The position numbers were made by a program, and so were the translations under genes. The notes beneath the pieces were generated by a model. It made no database searches, had not been told where the DNA came from, and saw nothing but the letters and a program-made list of their open reading frames with translations. From Parcubacteria group bacterium (lineage in GTDB: Bacteria; Patescibacteriota; Minisyncoccia; Moranbacterales; UBA2206), in contig JBAZUU010000002.1 in the NCBI GenBank assembly GCA_041661275.1, positions 33,206-97,205 of the forward strand: 64,000 bases of DNA, given 5' to 3'. The first letter of the stretch is position 1. Every line of letters starts with the position of its first letter. Positions 48,199 to 53,765 of this stretch are shown here, one piece after another.

Positions 48199-49521
48199 AT
48201 GAATGATAAACCAAAAAAATTAGTATATCTGGAAAAAATCCTTCGTCTGATGGCTGTTTTGGTGTTGAAAAAATACCACCCTCGCATCATTGGTATCACC
48301 GGATCAGTGGGAAAAACTTCAGCCAAAGAAGCTATTTTCACAGTTTTAGCGAGTCATGGAAGTGTCAGAAAGAATGAAAAAAACTACAACAATGAAATAG
48401 GCCTGCCACTGACTATTATCGGGACAGAAACAGGCGGAGATTCTCTGGCTGGTTGGATGAGAGTATTTTTGAAATGGACCGGTCTTGTTGCATACCCTGC
48501 AAAATATCCGGAATTTCTGATTTTGGAAATTGCCGCTGACCGGCCAGGCGATGTTAAGTATCTGGTTGATTTTGTGAAACCTGAACTTGGTGTTATCACC
48601 GACATATCCGGAAGCCATTTGGAATTTTTTAAAACTTTGGAAGGAATAACAAAAGAAAAAGGATATCTGGCCAAAAATGTAAAAGAAAATGGCGCGGCTA
48701 TTCTTAATATCGACAATCCTCAACTGAAAAAATTGAAAAACGAAACAAAATCGAGAGTGCTAACATTTGGATTTGGAGAGGAAGCGGATATTCGAGCCAC
48801 TGATGTTCTGTATAACTATGCGTCCAATGAGCAAAACGGAAATAGAGAATTGAAAGGATTGAGCTTTAAGTTAAATTACAAAGGAACATCAATGCCGATG
48901 CGGCTCAATAATATTTTGGCGGAACACAGCATCTATTCGGCTCTGGCCGGAGTGGCCGTGGGGATTGAGATGGGTTTGAATCTTGTGGAAATAGGGAAGG
49001 CTCTCGAAAATTTTTCTTTGCCGTCGGGTCGCATGAATCTTATCCGCGGAATAAAAAACACTATTCTTATCGACGATACCTATAATGCATCTCCGGTTTC
49101 CACTGCGGCGGCTCTTAAAGTTTTCAAAAGCATTGAAGCTAAAAGAAAAATCGCAGTTCTCGGCGATATGCTGGAACTGGGAATAAACACTGAACCAGGG
49201 CACAGGGAAGTGGCCAGGGAATTCTTGGCGTCTGGCGGAAATATTTTTATGGCAGTAGGCCGTCGAATGGAGCAGGCAATAGACGAACTCAAAAAACATA
49301 ACATCGATGAAAACAGAATTTTCCATTTCAGATCGCCAATGGAAGCCGGACTTAAACTTCAAGAAATCATGCATGAGGGTGATTTAATCCTGATTAAAGG
49401 GTCGCAGGGAATGAGAATGGAAAAGATCGTGGAAGAGGTGATGGCCGAACCTCTACGCGCTCCGCAACTTCTTTGTCGTCAGGATGAGAAATGGAGGAAG
49501 AAGGAGTGGAAGGAAGTCTAA
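48199..49521 (+). CDS. murF: UDP-N-acetylmuramoyl-tripeptide--D-alanyl-D-alanine ligase
   Basis: GITGSVGKTS P-loop, DDTYNASP (MurF-type) motif. 3' end abuts the REP/RAYT insertion. Confidence 0.8.
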   Translation: MNDKPKKLVYLEKILRLMAVLVLKKYHPRIIGITGSVGKTSAKEAIFTVLASHGSVRKNEKNYNNEIGLPLTIIGTETGGDSLAGWMRVFLKWTGLVAYPAKYPEFLILEIAADRPGDVKYLVDFVKPELGVITDISGSHLEFFKTLEGITKEKGYLAKNVKENGAAILNIDNPQLKKLKNETKSRVLTFGFGEEADIRATDVLYNYASNEQNGNRELKGLSFKLNYKGTSMPMRLNNILAEHSIYSALAGVAVGIEMGLNLVEIGKALENFSLPSGRMNLIRGIKNTILIDDTYNASPVSTAAALKVFKSIEAKRKIAVLGDMLELGINTEPGHREVAREFLASGGNIFMAVGRRMEQAIDELKKHNIDENRIFHFRSPMEAGLKLQEIMHEGDLILIKGSQGMRMEKIVEEVMAEPLRAPQLLCRQDEKWRKKEWKEV

Positions 49522-49525
49522 AGCT

Positions 49526-49550
49526 ACTTCCAAGGTTGAACCTTGGAAGT
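49526..49550. repeat. REP-like palindrome ACTTCCAAGGTTGAACCTTGGAAGT (left flank of RAYT)
   Basis: Perfect 25-nt palindrome directly after the murF stop. Confidence 0.8.
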
Positions 49551-49564
49551 GAGAATTTTATTAT

Positions 49565-50233
49565 ATGCAAAGAAAAATACCATTTATCAATGGGGAGTTT
49601 CATCATATTTATAATCGCGGAGTAGATAAACGCGAAATTTTTCTAGATAGAGATGATTATGAAAGGTTTTTTATTTCTATGTATTTTTTAAATACCAAGG
49701 AAAATGATCTGATAAGCAAGTGGTTAGATTTTAAGAAATTTAATCCCAAGGTTCAACCTTGGGAGTTTAAAAAAATAAAGTCGGAAGATAAACTCGTTGA
49801 GCTTAATTGTTATTGTCTAAATGATAATCATTACCACTTTATTATAAAACAACTTCGAGATAGAGGTATTGAAATATTTATGCAGAAACTGGGAACGAGT
49901 TACACTATGTATTTTAATAAGAAGTATGACAGAAGCGGATCATTGCTTCAGGGAAGGTTTAAGTCGGCTTATATTGACTCCGATGATAAATTGCTCTATT
50001 TGTCAGCGTATGTGAATAAAAATCATTCTATCCATGGGTATAAAGAGGGTGATAATTGGCAATATTCAAGTTTGAATGAATACCTGAATAAAAGCAAAAC
50101 TTTTTGTCTTTGCAATAAAAGTCCGATCATTGATCAATTCAGGGACATAAAGGAGTATCAAAACTATATAAATGTGAATGCGCTACAGATGAGAGAAAGT
50201 AAAGAAATGGAAAAAATGGCATTGGAATTTTAA
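49565..50233 (+). mobile_element. IS200/IS605-like HUH-Y1 transposase of REP-associated type (RAYT)
   Basis: YHIYNRG first-strand motif, HuH motif NDNHYHFII, Tyr motif LYLSAYVNKNH (compare E. coli TnpA-REP DYIYINPVKHG). Flanked on both sides by the same palindrome. Confidence 0.75.
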
Positions 50234-50258
50234 CTTCCAAGGTTGAACCTTGGAAGTT
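50232..50258. repeat. REP-like palindrome AACTTCCAAGGTTGAACCTTGGAAGTT (right flank of RAYT)
   Basis: Perfect palindrome. Immediately followed by a diverged copy of the murF 3' end (50259-50313). Confidence 0.8.
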
Positions 50259-50399
50259 ACTTCTCTGTCGGCAAGACGCAAAATGGAAAAGAAAGCCGTG
50301 GAAGGAAGTTTAGTGTAAGATTATTTTTAGAAATAGTAAAACCCCTGGCGGAATACCGGCCAGGGGTTTGTTGTTTATACCTCCTTGTAGCTATAGCAG

Positions 50400-51578
50400 C
50401 TACAGTTTTTTTACCTCGTTTTTGTGGTAAATACGGACAAAAAACATGCAGCCGTCTTTATAGATCCAGTCAACCCGGATCTTCGGAATCAGCCAGTCGT
50501 GGATGTATCCGTCAACTTCCAGTTTCCTGGATTTTTGCGAGTTTCTGTTTGGATCGAAACTTGCGAGCTTTTTTCTGATCACTTTCTGATGCTTATCCGG
50601 AAATTTAAAGAATCTGTTCATGAACTTTTCCGAATAAAGCATGGCCATATTAGTGGCTTGGCAGAAAGTGGGCAACTCGTCTGTCGCTGTTGCCACAACC
50701 AGATCCAGCTCGCTTGGCTCTGTCTCTAGAGCCAATCCGGATCCTGCATTGTCATTCTCCTGCGACAATGACAATACTTCCGCAGAAAGAAAATTCTTGA
50801 ATTTCTCCAAAATCTTTTCTTCGCCGGATCTTTCCAGGGCGCTGATCCGATTCTGAAGTCGAGTTGTTTCAATGCTGTGCTCACGGAGCAGATTGCCGAT
50901 CTTTTGATCTCTGGCGTTCAATTGCTCCGTCAGATCCTTGTTGTTCTGATAGAGCTTGCGGTACTCTGCCGCTTGAGTGTTCAAGCCTCTTTCCAGCTCC
51001 ATTATCTTGGAAATCGATTCTCCCAGCCGCTTATCACGGTCGTTAGTCTCTTTTTTCAGAGCCGAATTGCTATCCGTAATAATACGGTTCCGCTCTTCCA
51101 ACACTCTATTAGCATTTGAAAAAAAATCAACTTCTTCCAGCAGTTCCAACTCTCTTTTTCTAGACGATTCAAGGGCTGGAAGAGATATATTGGTCAATTC
51201 CTGAACCAAGTTAGGGAAGATGTGACAGAACGTTGTGGACATTTCCTGAATAGCGTCGTTTGCATTTTTAATCTTGACGTAAATTTCAAGACCGGGAATG
51301 TCCATGCTTGTTGCTGGCGGGATTATCGTTTCTTTTGGAATCTCTTCCATTTTCTCTGAAACTTCTTCCGGAATCGCTTCTGACACTTCCAGCGTTTCGT
51401 TTTTTGTCTGTTTTGACCGCAGTTCCTCTAGCTTCTCTCGAGTAGTGATGCCATCGGCCTTCAGGCATTTGATGCCCAGGAAAAATATGGAGGAATTCTT
51501 AAGAGAATTGATATAGTCTTCGATTTCCTTCCGACCCTTCTCTTTTGAATTCAGCCATTGCCAGGAAAGCTGGAGCAT
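50400..51578 (-). CDS. Coiled-coil protein with C-terminal RelE/ParE-like toxin-fold domain
   Basis: Last ~80 aa MAMLYSEKFMNRFFKFPDKHQKVIRKKLASF...IRVDWIYKDGCMFFVRIYHKNEV fits the RelE/ParE pattern (...YRIIYRI..vyvLRIGHRKEVY). The N-terminal ~300 aa is heptad-rich and acidic. Confidence 0.5.
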   Translation of the reverse strand: MLQLSWQWLNSKEKGRKEIEDYINSLKNSSIFFLGIKCLKADGITTREKLEELRSKQTKNETLEVSEAIPEEVSEKMEEIPKETIIPPATSMDIPGLEIYVKIKNANDAIQEMSTTFCHIFPNLVQELTNISLPALESSRKRELELLEEVDFFSNANRVLEERNRIITDSNSALKKETNDRDKRLGESISKIMELERGLNTQAAEYRKLYQNNKDLTEQLNARDQKIGNLLREHSIETTRLQNRISALERSGEEKILEKFKNFLSAEVLSLSQENDNAGSGLALETEPSELDLVVATATDELPTFCQATNMAMLYSEKFMNRFFKFPDKHQKVIRKKLASFDPNRNSQKSRKLEVDGYIHDWLIPKIRVDWIYKDGCMFFVRIYHKNEVKKL

Positions 51579-51818
51579 CTTAATTGTCGTCCTTACAACA
51601 CCCTTGCCTACACTTACCCCATGTTCTTCGAGAAGTGTTTCCGATACCCATTCCTGAAAATCTGATTCTGTCGCATCTTTGTCTGGATAGATGAAGTCAT
51701 CGTGTAGTTGACTTGCTATTCATGTGATGTTTTCTGTTTTGATTTTTCTTCCCTTATAACCTGTTTGGGAAGTAATCTCGACAAAGTTTGGTGAATGTAA
51801 GAGAAAATTTTCGGCCAT
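51579..51818 (-). pseudogene. In-frame upstream fragment (ATG 51816-51818, TGA 51720-51722) of the coiled-coil/RelE-like gene: possible disrupted N-terminus or separate small ORF
   Basis: Manual translation: MAENFLLHSPNFVEITSQTGYKGRKIKTENIT-TGA-IASQLHDDFIYPDKDATESDFQEWVSETLLEEHGVSVGKGVVRTTIK-M(50400..51578 ORF), all in one frame. Confidence 0.4.
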
Positions 51819-51980
51819 AGCCCCTTCCTTTCGGTTTTCGGGTTTAAAACAAGTTTTTAATGACCTTTCCAGTGCAACTAAACCTAGCATAAAACAGCTA
51901 AAAAGTCAATAGTAGCTTTACTTTTTACCCCCACAATATTATACTAGAAGCAGTAAATAACGGGGGTAAATAATAAAAAT

Positions 51981-52580
51981 ATGTCAGAGTTACTGGAAAA
52001 TCTTTTTGGTTCAAAGGAGAGAGCGAGACTTTTGCGGTTTTTTCTGCAAAATCCCGACCAGTTGTATGAATTTTCTGACGTGGTCAGAAAAAACATGCTC
52101 AAAAACACGAATACAAGAAGAGAGCTTCAAAATCTTGTCAGGATAAAGTTTGCTATAAAAAGAACAAAGCAGGGAAAAAATTTCTACCAACTCAACCAGG
52201 ACTTCAATTTTTATCCGGAACTAAAGAACCTTATCGCCAAATCTAATGTCTATCCGCAGTGTATGAGTCTCGGAAAGATTTCCAAGATCGGCAACATAAA
52301 ACTGGCAGCCATTTCCGGTGTTTTCATCAACTACCAAAAAAGTAAGGCCGATATGATCCTGGTGGGGGACGCCATTTCCAAAGCTAAACTGAAAAATCTT
52401 ATGAATAATTTGGAGGCGGAAATTGGCCGGGAAATAAATTTTGTGCTTATGACTATGGACGAATTTAAATACCGATTGAACATGCTTGATAAATTCGTTT
52501 TGGAATTTCTGGAAGGTCCGCATGAAGAGGTGATAAACAAGATCCAGGGACTTAAGCAGCTTATAGCAAATCGGAAATAA
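51981..52580 (+). CDS. Hypothetical protein, possible N-terminal winged-helix
   Basis: ERARLLRFFLQNPDQLYEFSDVV resembles a wHTH recognition region. The rest is unassigned. Confidence 0.4.
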   Translation: MSELLENLFGSKERARLLRFFLQNPDQLYEFSDVVRKNMLKNTNTRRELQNLVRIKFAIKRTKQGKNFYQLNQDFNFYPELKNLIAKSNVYPQCMSLGKISKIGNIKLAAISGVFINYQKSKADMILVGDAISKAKLKNLMNNLEAEIGREINFVLMTMDEFKYRLNMLDKFVLEFLEGPHEEVINKIQGLKQLIANRK

Positions 52581-52584
52581 AGGT

Positions 52585-52680
52585 TACGAAATACGAAATT
52601 AATACGAAATACGAAAATACGAAAAAGGGAGACAAGACGTTTCGTATTTCGCTCGTTTTGTATTTCGTAAAACATAACCA
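52585..52680. repeat. Nested inverted repeats of ACGAAATACGAAA (hairpin/terminator region)
   Basis: ttacgaaatacgaaattaatacgaaatacgaaaatacgaaa ... tttcgtatttcgctcgttttgtatttcgtaa. Confidence 0.6.
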
Positions 52681-53765
52681 TGCTTTATTTATTAATAGGA
52701 ATAATAATAATACTCGCGGCCATCATTTGGCTTTTTTTGGATATGAAAAATAAATTAGGAAACGGGCAGGACGGCGAAAAGATGGTGGCGGTTTTGGAAC
52801 GGCTCAATATGCTTTCCCAGCAAAATGAGCATATGCGTCAGACTATGGATTCCAAGCTTTCTGAAACGCACCGGACAACGCAAGAGCAAATGAATCAAAC
52901 TATAAGGACTGTTCAAGGTATTTCCGGCCAATCGGCTAAGCAGATCGCTGATGTGGTGGCGGGGCTGACTAAGCTCGAAGAGACTAACAAGCAAGTGGTC
53001 AATTTTTCGGCGCAACTGCAGAATTTGCAGGATATTTTGAAAAATCCAAAGCAAAGAGGGGTGCTTGGCGAATATTTTTTGGAAGAAACCCTAAAAAATG
53101 TGTTGCCACCCAATTCCTATCAGATGCAATACAAATTCAAAGACGGTATCATTGTTGACGCGGTGGTGTTTGTGGCCAAAAAAATTGTTCCTATTGATTC
53201 AAAATTTTCCCTGGAGAATTACGAAAGAATCTTGAATGCTAAGGATAGCGAGGAAAGAGAAACGTGGGAAAAATCATTCAAGCAGGATCTCAAAAATCGG
53301 ATCGATGAAACTTCCAAATATATTAGACCGGAAGAAGACACCCTCGATTTTGCCTTTATGTTCATTCCGTCGGAAGCGATATATTATGACTTGCTCATTA
53401 ATAAAGTTGGCGCGGTGCAAGTGAATACTCGCGATCTCATAGAATACGCTTTTTGCGAGAAAAAGGTGATTATTGTTTCACCAACATCTTTCTTGGCCTA
53501 TCTTCAGACAGTTTTGCAGGGATTGCGCGCTCTGCAGATAGAAGAAAGCGCCAAAGAGATCCGTTCCAACGTGGAAAAACTAGGAAGGCATATAGTTTCC
53601 TTCGAGGAATTTATGAAAAAAGCAGGTGGAAGCCTGGGGACGACAGTCAGTCATTTCAACAGCGCTTACAAGGAATTTGGAAAAATTGACAAAGACGTGG
53701 CTAAAATTACCGAAGGGGAAAAGCAGATTGAGGTATTGGCTCTCGAAAAACCGACACTGGAATAA
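52680..53765 (+). CDS. rmuC: DNA recombination protein RmuC
   Basis: N-terminal transmembrane segment, long coiled coil and C-terminal RmuC nuclease-like region (FAFMFIPSEAIYYDL...VIIVSPTSFLAYLQ). Confidence 0.8.
   Translation: MLYLLIGIIIILAAIIWLFLDMKNKLGNGQDGEKMVAVLERLNMLSQQNEHMRQTMDSKLSETHRTTQEQMNQTIRTVQGISGQSAKQIADVVAGLTKLEETNKQVVNFSAQLQNLQDILKNPKQRGVLGEYFLEETLKNVLPPNSYQMQYKFKDGIIVDAVVFVAKKIVPIDSKFSLENYERILNAKDSEERETWEKSFKQDLKNRIDETSKYIRPEEDTLDFAFMFIPSEAIYYDLLINKVGAVQVNTRDLIEYAFCEKKVIIVSPTSFLAYLQTVLQGLRALQIEESAKEIRSNVEKLGRHIVSFEEFMKKAGGSLGTTVSHFNSAYKEFGKIDKDVAKITEGEKQIEVLALEKPTLE

Follow-up and report, generated by a model that had tools for sequence, protein, structure and literature searches.

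The stretch examined here, 64,000 nucleotides of a contig from a Parcubacteria group bacterium (JBAZUU010000002.1; referred to below as the window), carries on its minus strand an open reading frame (ORF) annotated as a protein of 392 amino acids. We find that this ORF is the larger part of a gene of 472 codons, which belongs to a very rare protein family and is interrupted at codon 33 by an in-frame TGA. The C-terminal domain of the encoded protein adopts, in our structural model, the RelE/ParE fold of type II toxins. We propose that the window holds a recently inactivated copy of this gene, and that the intact form is a stand-alone conflict protein to which a RelE-type effector is tethered, a reading to which we assign a probability of roughly 60%.

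A premature TGA in a gene of 472 codons

The annotated ORF spans 50400..51578 on the minus strand, with its start Met at ATG 51578. An earlier note on this DNA had described the ORF and its sequence, a TGA at 51720-51722 lying upstream of it in the same frame, and stretches of 32 and 47 codons on the two sides of that TGA; we recovered every one of these elements as described. The 32 codons on the 5' side (MAENFLLHSPNFVEITSQTGYKGRKIKTENIT) open at an ATG at 51818, and the 47 sense codons that lead from the TGA to the annotated Met (51579-51719) include no ATG, GTG or TTG. Beyond the TGA the frame stays open for 439 codons, in which no further lesion was seen. Residues are numbered below on the merged translation of 472 residues unless the 392-residue numbering is stated. 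The parts of the gene are as follows.

50400..51818, minus strand: the whole gene as reconstructed, 472 codons, from ATG 51818 to the TAG stop at 50400-50402, with the TGA as codon 33
51821..51830, minus strand: strong Shine-Dalgarno sequence AAGGAAGGGG, 2 nucleotides 5' of ATG 51818, read from the sequence
51723..51818, minus strand: N-terminal fragment of 32 codons with the family motif M-x-x-(N/D)-F-L-x-x-S-x-x-(F/Y), recognised by alignments, BLASTP and profile
51720..51722, minus strand: in-frame TGA, codon 33, aligned with L, M or A of the intact homologues
51579..51719, minus strand: 47 sense codons encoding the helix-turn-helix (HTH)-like part of the N-terminal domain (N-domain), including the invariant Gly67
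50338..50366, minus strand: GC-rich terminator-like hairpin CCCCTGGC...GCCAGGGG followed by TTTT, about 35 nucleotides after the TAG stop

An exhaustive phmmer search with the 439-residue translation that follows the TGA returned three distant homologues (P0002, E=3.9e-10; P0003, E=2.6e-7; P0004, E=2.4e-4, the last aligned over almost its whole length). All three alignments start ahead of the annotated Met (position 48 of the query), at residues 28-30. The homologues are intact proteins of 433-461 residues that align across the TGA and from residue 1. P0003 (MDKNFLRYSKSFVDI...) and P0004 (MARDFLLLSESY...) start, at their true N-termini, with sequence to which the fragment (MAENFLLHSPNFVEI...) aligns, and in a pairwise BLASTP comparison the fragment matches residues 1-18 of P0003 with E=2e-4. 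The annotated Met (Met81 of the merged protein) corresponds to a conserved internal residue of the motif K-M-(I/L)-Q. Judged from these sequences, the Shine-Dalgarno at 51821-51830 marks the true translation start, and the homologues begin at the equivalent Met.

We further scored the window sequence against a profile made from the three homologues only, the window sequence being left out to keep the test unbiased. The annotated 392 residues score 79.8 bits over profile positions 72-453; the 439-residue translation after the TGA scores 100.2 bits over positions 52-453, the 47 codons adding 20.4; and the merged 472 residues score 107.3 bits from end to end (positions 1-453), the fragment adding a further 7.1. 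When the fragment was shuffled, none of 200 versions reached 107.3 bits (mean 100.1, maximum 106.3). Because the score climbs with each upstream piece, the arrangement of fragment, spacer and ORF is not a matter of chance, and on these alignments the three are parts of one gene of 472 codons.

The family to which this gene belongs, a candidate-phylum bacterial one, is very rare, with four known sequences. Clustering of a collection of about 15 billion sequences leaves each of the four proteins as a singleton. Word-indexed protein searches, whether with the full protein, the full-length alignment or a chimeric alignment of the N- and C-terminal parts, returned only the query and, once, P0004; the exact window protein was found in this way as a hypothetical protein of a Parcubacteria metagenome-assembled genome (MAG). 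Two metagenome scans, one scan of viral contigs and a tblastn search of phage genomes gave no further members.

We also note that the annotation of P0002 misses its first 27 codons. The ORF runs up to an ATG at 2034 (2034-2113 of locus L008) that is preceded by a GAGGAG Shine-Dalgarno (GAGGAGAAAAGAGG), and the protein extended in this way begins MGIFFLEGSRAYDDF... and carries the N-terminal motif of the family.

The TGA and the region upstream of it are identical in three further assemblies from other samples (ENA ERZ27249449, Logan SRR6484324 and SRR18595301; our loci L001, L002 and L003), all of which match the window at 100% identity over 6-13 kb. The earlier note had listed a sequencing error at this codon among its possibilities, and a single base difference would indeed be enough to turn an intact gene into the one observed; but with the same codon in four assemblies the TGA is not an assembly error, and we give this explanation next to no credence. 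That note had also allowed that reading through such an error might merge all pieces into one conserved and known protein. The pieces do merge into one conserved protein, but its family is not a known one, and the four assemblies speak against a read error.

Translation through the TGA, by programmed read-through or recoding, would yield the full 472-residue protein. The sequence on either side of the codon is in frame and homologous to the intact relatives, and the first ATG has a strong Shine-Dalgarno. We nevertheless regard decoding of the TGA as very improbable. In the window (G+C content 39.8%) 39 stretches stay open for 200 codons or more, and TGA terminates seven of these; no suppressor tRNA, tRNA with a UCA anticodon or selenocysteine tRNA was found in the window, and the homologues carry ordinary L, M or A codons at this position. 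The RNA 3' of the TGA folds no better than shuffled sequences (z = -0.05) and offers no structure resembling a selenocysteine insertion sequence or a read-through signal, and an Rfam scan of the gene region gave no match above threshold. The view of the earlier note that TGA is a normal stop here, and that recoding is unlikely, is thus borne out; genetic codes 25 and 4 were rejected on the grounds that TGA acts as a normal stop in the window and that no matching tRNA lies there. No reassignment of UGA is known in Parcubacteria.

Compared with the intact homologues, codon 33 is a premature stop with homologous coding sequence on both sides. Since it is a genuine TGA, the window copy is most likely a very recently inactivated gene, which yields at most an N-terminally truncated product from Met81. 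Among the four explanations that had been offered for the locus, recent pseudogenisation of a larger gene gives the best fit, as the intact homologues span the TGA. The intact form may be a fused toxin-antitoxin or a sensor-effector fusion (see below). A filamentous or secreted carrier we set aside, an N-terminal hydrophobic segment not being seen by eye (no signal-peptide or transmembrane predictor was run).

A split gene could still be functional if translation restarted at Met81 (ATG 51578) to give the 392-residue protein, perhaps together with a separate peptide of 32 residues. This would fit the 439 codons that remain open past the TGA without a further lesion, an AAGGA found 11 nucleotides 5' of ATG 51578, and the presence of the same allele in several samples. 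However, Met81 is an internal residue of a helix that is conserved in P0002 and P0003 (K-M-(I/L)-Q), the product would lose 80 residues of a conserved domain and with them 27.5 of the 107.3 profile bits, and the spacing of the Shine-Dalgarno is long. An intact downstream ORF is, moreover, equally expected from a very recent nonsense mutation. We consider a functional split gene unlikely and retain recent inactivation as the preferred account.

At the 3' end of the gene, two sub-threshold Rfam matches on the minus strand at 50335-50454 (sar RNA, 23.7 bits against a cutoff of 43; P15, 20.3 bits against a cutoff of 70) are most likely the terminator-like hairpin itself.

A RelE-fold domain behind a coiled coil

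Alignments and structure prediction divide the merged protein into the following segments; a second acidic linker (residues 361-390) precedes the C-terminal domain and ends in a conserved L-P-x-x-C...N lead-in.

50403..50678, minus strand: C-terminal 92 residues, the L-P-x-x-C...N lead-in followed by the RelE/ParE-fold domain (about 391-472), isoelectric point (pI) 9.8
50745..51215, minus strand: long helix or coiled coil, 122-278 in the 392-residue numbering (about 200-360 merged), from the model and heptad periodicity
51279..51407, minus strand: acidic Pro-containing linker, residues 138-180, pI 4.05, with low model confidence and poor conservation
51408..51818, minus strand: N-terminal conserved domain, residues 1-137, from alignments, with an HTH-like segment and the motif G-I-(K/R)-C-L-x-x-D-G-(I/V)

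An AlphaFold2 (AF2) model of the C-terminal domain from a four-sequence alignment reached a predicted local distance difference test score (pLDDT) of 82.8 and a predicted template modelling score of 0.74; four of the five models scored 75-83. The modelled topology is a strand, two helices (of 7 and 12 residues) and then four strands, in a compact domain of about 85-95 residues. In structural comparisons this model scores highest with M. tuberculosis RelE1 (9g12) and M. jannaschii RelE3 (3bpq), both at 10.2, followed by T. thermophilus RelE (2khe, 9.7), P. horikoshii RelE (9.5), YafQ (9.2), YoeB (9.1) and HigB2 (8.6), with ParE proteins at 7.8-9.0 and the CARF-RelE effector Cami1 at 7.6. Foldseek concurs, and the matches in a viral fold library were generic RelE-like phage proteins only.

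The RelE/ParE fold of the C-terminal domain, which the earlier note had suspected, is established at the level of this model, and its likeness at the level of sequence profiles is weak but detectable. Indeed, a profile of the four C-terminal domains matches M. jannaschii RelE3 (3bpq) end to end with E=4.4e-4. The curated RelE/ParE models (ParE_toxin, YoeB, HigB and those of NCBIfam) matched none of the four C-terminal domains, not even at E<=10, and searches of Pfam, NCBIfam, PADLOC, PHROGs and PDB sequences with the 392-residue protein or its last 86-106 residues returned coiled-coil noise only.

For the catalytic residues, the four domains were aligned in MAFFT with RelE3 and with an E. coli RelE sequence that fits the known residue numbering. 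The sole invariant Arg of the family (R448, or R368 in the 392-residue numbering) aligns with R61 of RelE and R62 of RelE3. All four members have a basic residue where RelE has K80, conservation is lacking at K52 and K54, and R81 is replaced by Lys in three members and by Asn in the window copy. An equivalent of Y87 is found in P0002 (RKESVY) and P0003 (RKDIY), which resemble the HRKSIY of RelE3. The missing catalytic equivalents make RNase activity doubtful for the clade formed by the window copy and P0004.

We also considered that the C-terminal domain might be a gyrase poison of the ParE type rather than a ribosome-dependent RNase of the RelE type, the fold being common to both. Solved ParE structures have a long helical hairpin, and the short helices modelled here appear more RelE-like. 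The ParE toxins compared (M. tuberculosis ParE1 and ParE2, P. aeruginosa ParE and E. coli O157 ParE2) score below RelE, the best structural matches and the only sequence-profile match are to RelE proteins, P0002 and P0003 retain a RelE3-like RK..(I/V)Y tail, and no ParD-like partner is present. A ParE-type activity is therefore quite unlikely, and we continue to describe the domain as RelE-type.

The regions upstream of this domain had been described as about 300 residues of coiled coil. A coiled coil does exist, but it covers only about 150 residues (122-278 in the 392-residue numbering), the remainder being the N-domain and the two acidic linkers, which are probably disordered. A single-sequence AF2 run on the 392-residue protein gave an overall pLDDT of 55.7 and was uninformative for the terminal domains; it predicted a helix at 122-251 (392-residue numbering) with block-mean pLDDT values of 60-89, above 80 across about 160-240, and heptad-period power is raised along the coiled-coil stretch. 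The only database matches to this stretch are the coiled-coil arms of SMC-like proteins. Likewise, PADLOC matches of P0002 and P0004 to JetC, LmuB and DndD involve coiled-coil arms only and were rejected as homology.

The N-domain, of about 135 residues, is conserved in the family, with M1, F5, L6, S9, G67, I116, C118, D122 and G123 invariant. Its C-terminal part is predicted to be helical at low confidence (single-sequence model, helices H2-58), and a profile of the domain found nothing significant in PDB or Pfam, where weak HTH-type matches were the only ones (E 0.05-0.2). The earlier claim that no antitoxin-like fold is recognisable upstream of the RelE-fold domain has to be corrected, since ahead of the coiled coil lies this conserved helical domain with its HTH-like segment, albeit one that no database entry matches.

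The variable slot after murF and the proposed conflict protein

The family gene lies in an interval between murF, which ends at 49521, and a divergently oriented gene for a winged helix-turn-helix (wHTH) protein, which starts at 51981. This interval (49522..51980) is a variable cargo slot that holds, in the window, a RAYT-like transposase gene (REP-associated tyrosine transposase; REP, repetitive extragenic palindrome) and the family gene. Using the wHTH protein, we collected 58 loci from species-representative genomes, mostly Moranbacteria, Parcubacteria and Patescibacteria MAGs, as a comparison set. In 16 of them murF was found 5' of the wHTH gene: the junction is empty in nine species (gap of 77-299 bp), carries the family gene in two loci and carries other cargo in five. 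The two loci with the family gene (L004/L010) are one Moranbacteria genome, to which the window adds a further case. The other cargo is as follows.

L024, 5512-6735: a Fic/DOC protein, confirmed with Pfam
L029, 4637-6826: an AbiEii toxin, an AAA-type protein and a Bro-N protein, the named families confirmed with Pfam
L036, 3470-5373: RhuM (confirmed with Pfam) and a 250-residue protein that is SPFH/band-7-like by eye
L066, 3674-6679: a Y1 (RAYT-like) transposase (Pfam) and a 496-residue secreted protein with an M23-like HLHF motif by eye
L064: cargo in a 6-kb gap

The flanks are thus conserved while presence and content vary among related genomes, and since the junction is empty or differently filled in relatives, we regard it as a cargo hotspot and the family gene as accessory. 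The earlier note had proposed a small accessory islet formed with the adjacent RAYT insertion; the accessory character stands, but the RAYT-like gene is a separate insertion (see the last section).

P0004 occupies the same position and orientation in its Moranbacteria MAG (L004) as the family gene does in the window (murF, family gene, wHTH, rmuC), at the end of an mraZ-rsmH-ftsI-murF cluster. Between the two loci the amino acid identity is 70.5% for FtsI, 70% for MurF, 85% for the wHTH protein, 62.5% for RmuC and 54% for a 137-residue protein, compared with 23% for the family gene, and at the nucleotide level the two family genes show no detectable similarity. On this comparison the family gene is extremely diverged relative to its flanks. 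No conserved, small, co-oriented ORF that could encode a partner or antitoxin was found beside the family gene in the window, L004, L008 or L009, and the adjacency typical of type II toxin-antitoxin pairs is absent from these loci.

Our proposal for the intact protein is that of a self-contained conflict protein of the toxin or abortive-infection type. The coiled coil would dimerise the protein, and the N-domain and linker may hold the effector silent, as an antitoxin in cis or as a sensor, possibly binding DNA as type II antitoxins do. A trigger, or proteolysis of the acidic linkers, which are plausible protease targets, would then free the effector. The freed basic RelE-like domain could bind the ribosome and arrest translation, probably by cleavage of mRNA in the A site.

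Several observations weigh against this reading. No member of the family reaches any toxin model of Pfam, NCBIfam, PADLOC or PHROGs, and the structural model of the C-terminal domain was built on four sequences only. The window copy and P0004 have no equivalents of K52, K54 and Y87, and the R81 equivalent of the window copy is Asn. The N-domain showed no recognisable fold or function in profile searches of PDB and Pfam. Finally, the complete identity of the assemblies that carry the TGA makes them all one clone, which is silent on selection acting on the interrupted gene.

An alternative is that the RelE-fold domain is not a toxin and has been exapted as a catalytically dead module that binds RNA, the ribosome or a protein, set on a coiled-coil scaffold, the protein serving in structure or regulation. 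Conservation fails at most RelE catalytic positions, leaving one invariant Arg; neither the window copy nor P0004 has the C-terminal Tyr, no antitoxin gene lies next to the family gene, and toxin models go unmatched. On the other hand, 56 of 58 related species with the same neighbourhood gene lack the family gene, and nine have an empty site; the divergence of the gene is far above that of its flanks, and the slot is one used by Fic, AbiEii and RhuM cargo. RelE-family nucleases are, in addition, active despite large variation in sequence and in the active site (PMC11090510). We consider an exapted module possible, if doubtful, and continue to favour a conflict protein with a tethered effector.

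The family differs from known systems with a RelE fold in several respects. Stand-alone RelE-type type II toxins (RelE1 9g12, RelE3 3bpq, 2khe, E. coli RelE, YafQ and YoeB) share only 5-16% identity with the C-terminal domain and are proteins of about 90 residues, whereas here the domain ends a protein of about 470 residues, next to whose gene no antitoxin gene lies. The K52 and K54 equivalents are missing throughout the family, and those of R81 and Y87 are also missing in the window copy. A precedent for a RelE fold in a larger defence protein is Cami1, a CARF-RelE fusion that acts as an ancillary effector of type III CRISPR systems (PMC11229360). Here, in contrast, no CARF domain is detectable and a coiled coil of about 150 residues connects the domains; among the ORFs around the family gene no CRISPR-Cas gene was seen (the window was not scanned for CRISPR arrays). 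A second parallel is the RelE-like RTL domain of the CnuH helicases in CoCoNuT type IV restriction systems (PMC11090510), which is likewise a divergent RelE fold, recognised only by structure comparison, within a large defence protein, and belongs to systems in which coiled coils abound. Unlike CnuH, the family protein is small and stands alone, with no helicase, McrBC or nuclease partner, and no sequence relationship between the two was detected. CapRel(SJ46) is a fused single-chain toxin-antitoxin with a toxin fold of the RelA/SpoT type. The two proteins would share a single chain in which the non-toxin part is proposed to restrain the toxin, the lack of a partner gene and a variable locus; they differ in that the present family has a RelE fold and the reverse domain order, and its auto-inhibition is so far our inference.

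A bolder form of the proposal, which we put forward only tentatively, is that the intact family constitutes an undescribed single-chain defence or abortive-infection system of Moranbacteria and Parcubacteria. An HTH-like sensor and a dimeric coil would restrain a RelE-type ribosome-dependent RNase until a phage or stress cue arrives, the system would diversify rapidly in the murF-proximal hotspot, and it would just have been lost in the strain of the window. If this were true, the family would be a coiled-coil analogue of Cami1 or CapRel.

The fold itself is known; what is new is the domain architecture, in which the N-domain, a coiled coil and a RelE fold follow one another with no partner gene. 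Should the intact protein prove to be an auto-inhibited single-chain toxin, it would represent a new mode of regulating RelE-type nucleases; otherwise, the locus provides a corrected gene model and another example of a recently inactivated accessory gene. The repertoire of immunity and toxin genes in the candidate phyla radiation (Patescibacteria) is poorly known, and accessory genes are conspicuous in such tiny genomes. In Moranbacteria, the slot at the end of the dcw (cell-division and cell-wall) cluster is a cargo hotspot for Fic, AbiEii, RhuM, Bro-N and RAYT genes. By starting the protein at Met81, the automatic annotation conceals the longer interrupted gene.

Neighbouring genes and the RAYT-like insertion

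The wHTH protein (199 residues, 51981-52580, plus strand, divergent from the family gene) matches the PADLOC model PDC-M05A, a phage defence candidate, with E=5.8e-25. It belongs to no Pfam family, is conserved at 66-85% identity in 58 related species and lies directly 5' of rmuC in the window and in L004. Its occurrence in 58 species suggests that it may be a core gene and not a defence gene. A functional link between it and the family gene was rejected, as the family gene stands alongside it in two genomes only. The RmuC-family protein that follows (52680-53765, plus strand; Pfam E=9.9e-57) also matches the PADLOC model RTasRmuC, which is associated with defence-associated reverse transcriptases, with E=1.5e-14; this is probably a mere similarity of the shared domain.

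On the other side of the family gene lies the transposase gene.

49565..50233, plus strand: RAYT or IS200-like Y1 transposase gene (Pfam Y1_Tnp, 1.5e-5; NCBIfam REP_Tyr_transpos, 4.2e-4, below the curated cutoff)

Identical palindromes of 25 nucleotides (ACTTCCAAGGTTGAACCTTGGAAGT) bracket this gene at 49526-49550 and 50233-50257, and a third copy, 84% identical, lies within its ORF at 49742-49766. The last 54 nucleotides of murF (49467-49520) are repeated at 76% identity just past the second palindrome (50259-50312). It is this downstream copy that resembles the murF tail of L004 (82%), and the nucleotide alignment of the two murF genes ends at about 49451. From the repeat, the likeness to L004 and the break in the alignment, the REP-RAYT unit seems to have entered murF at its 3' end and to have supplied it with a replacement tail; the RAYT-like gene is an insertion separate from the family gene.

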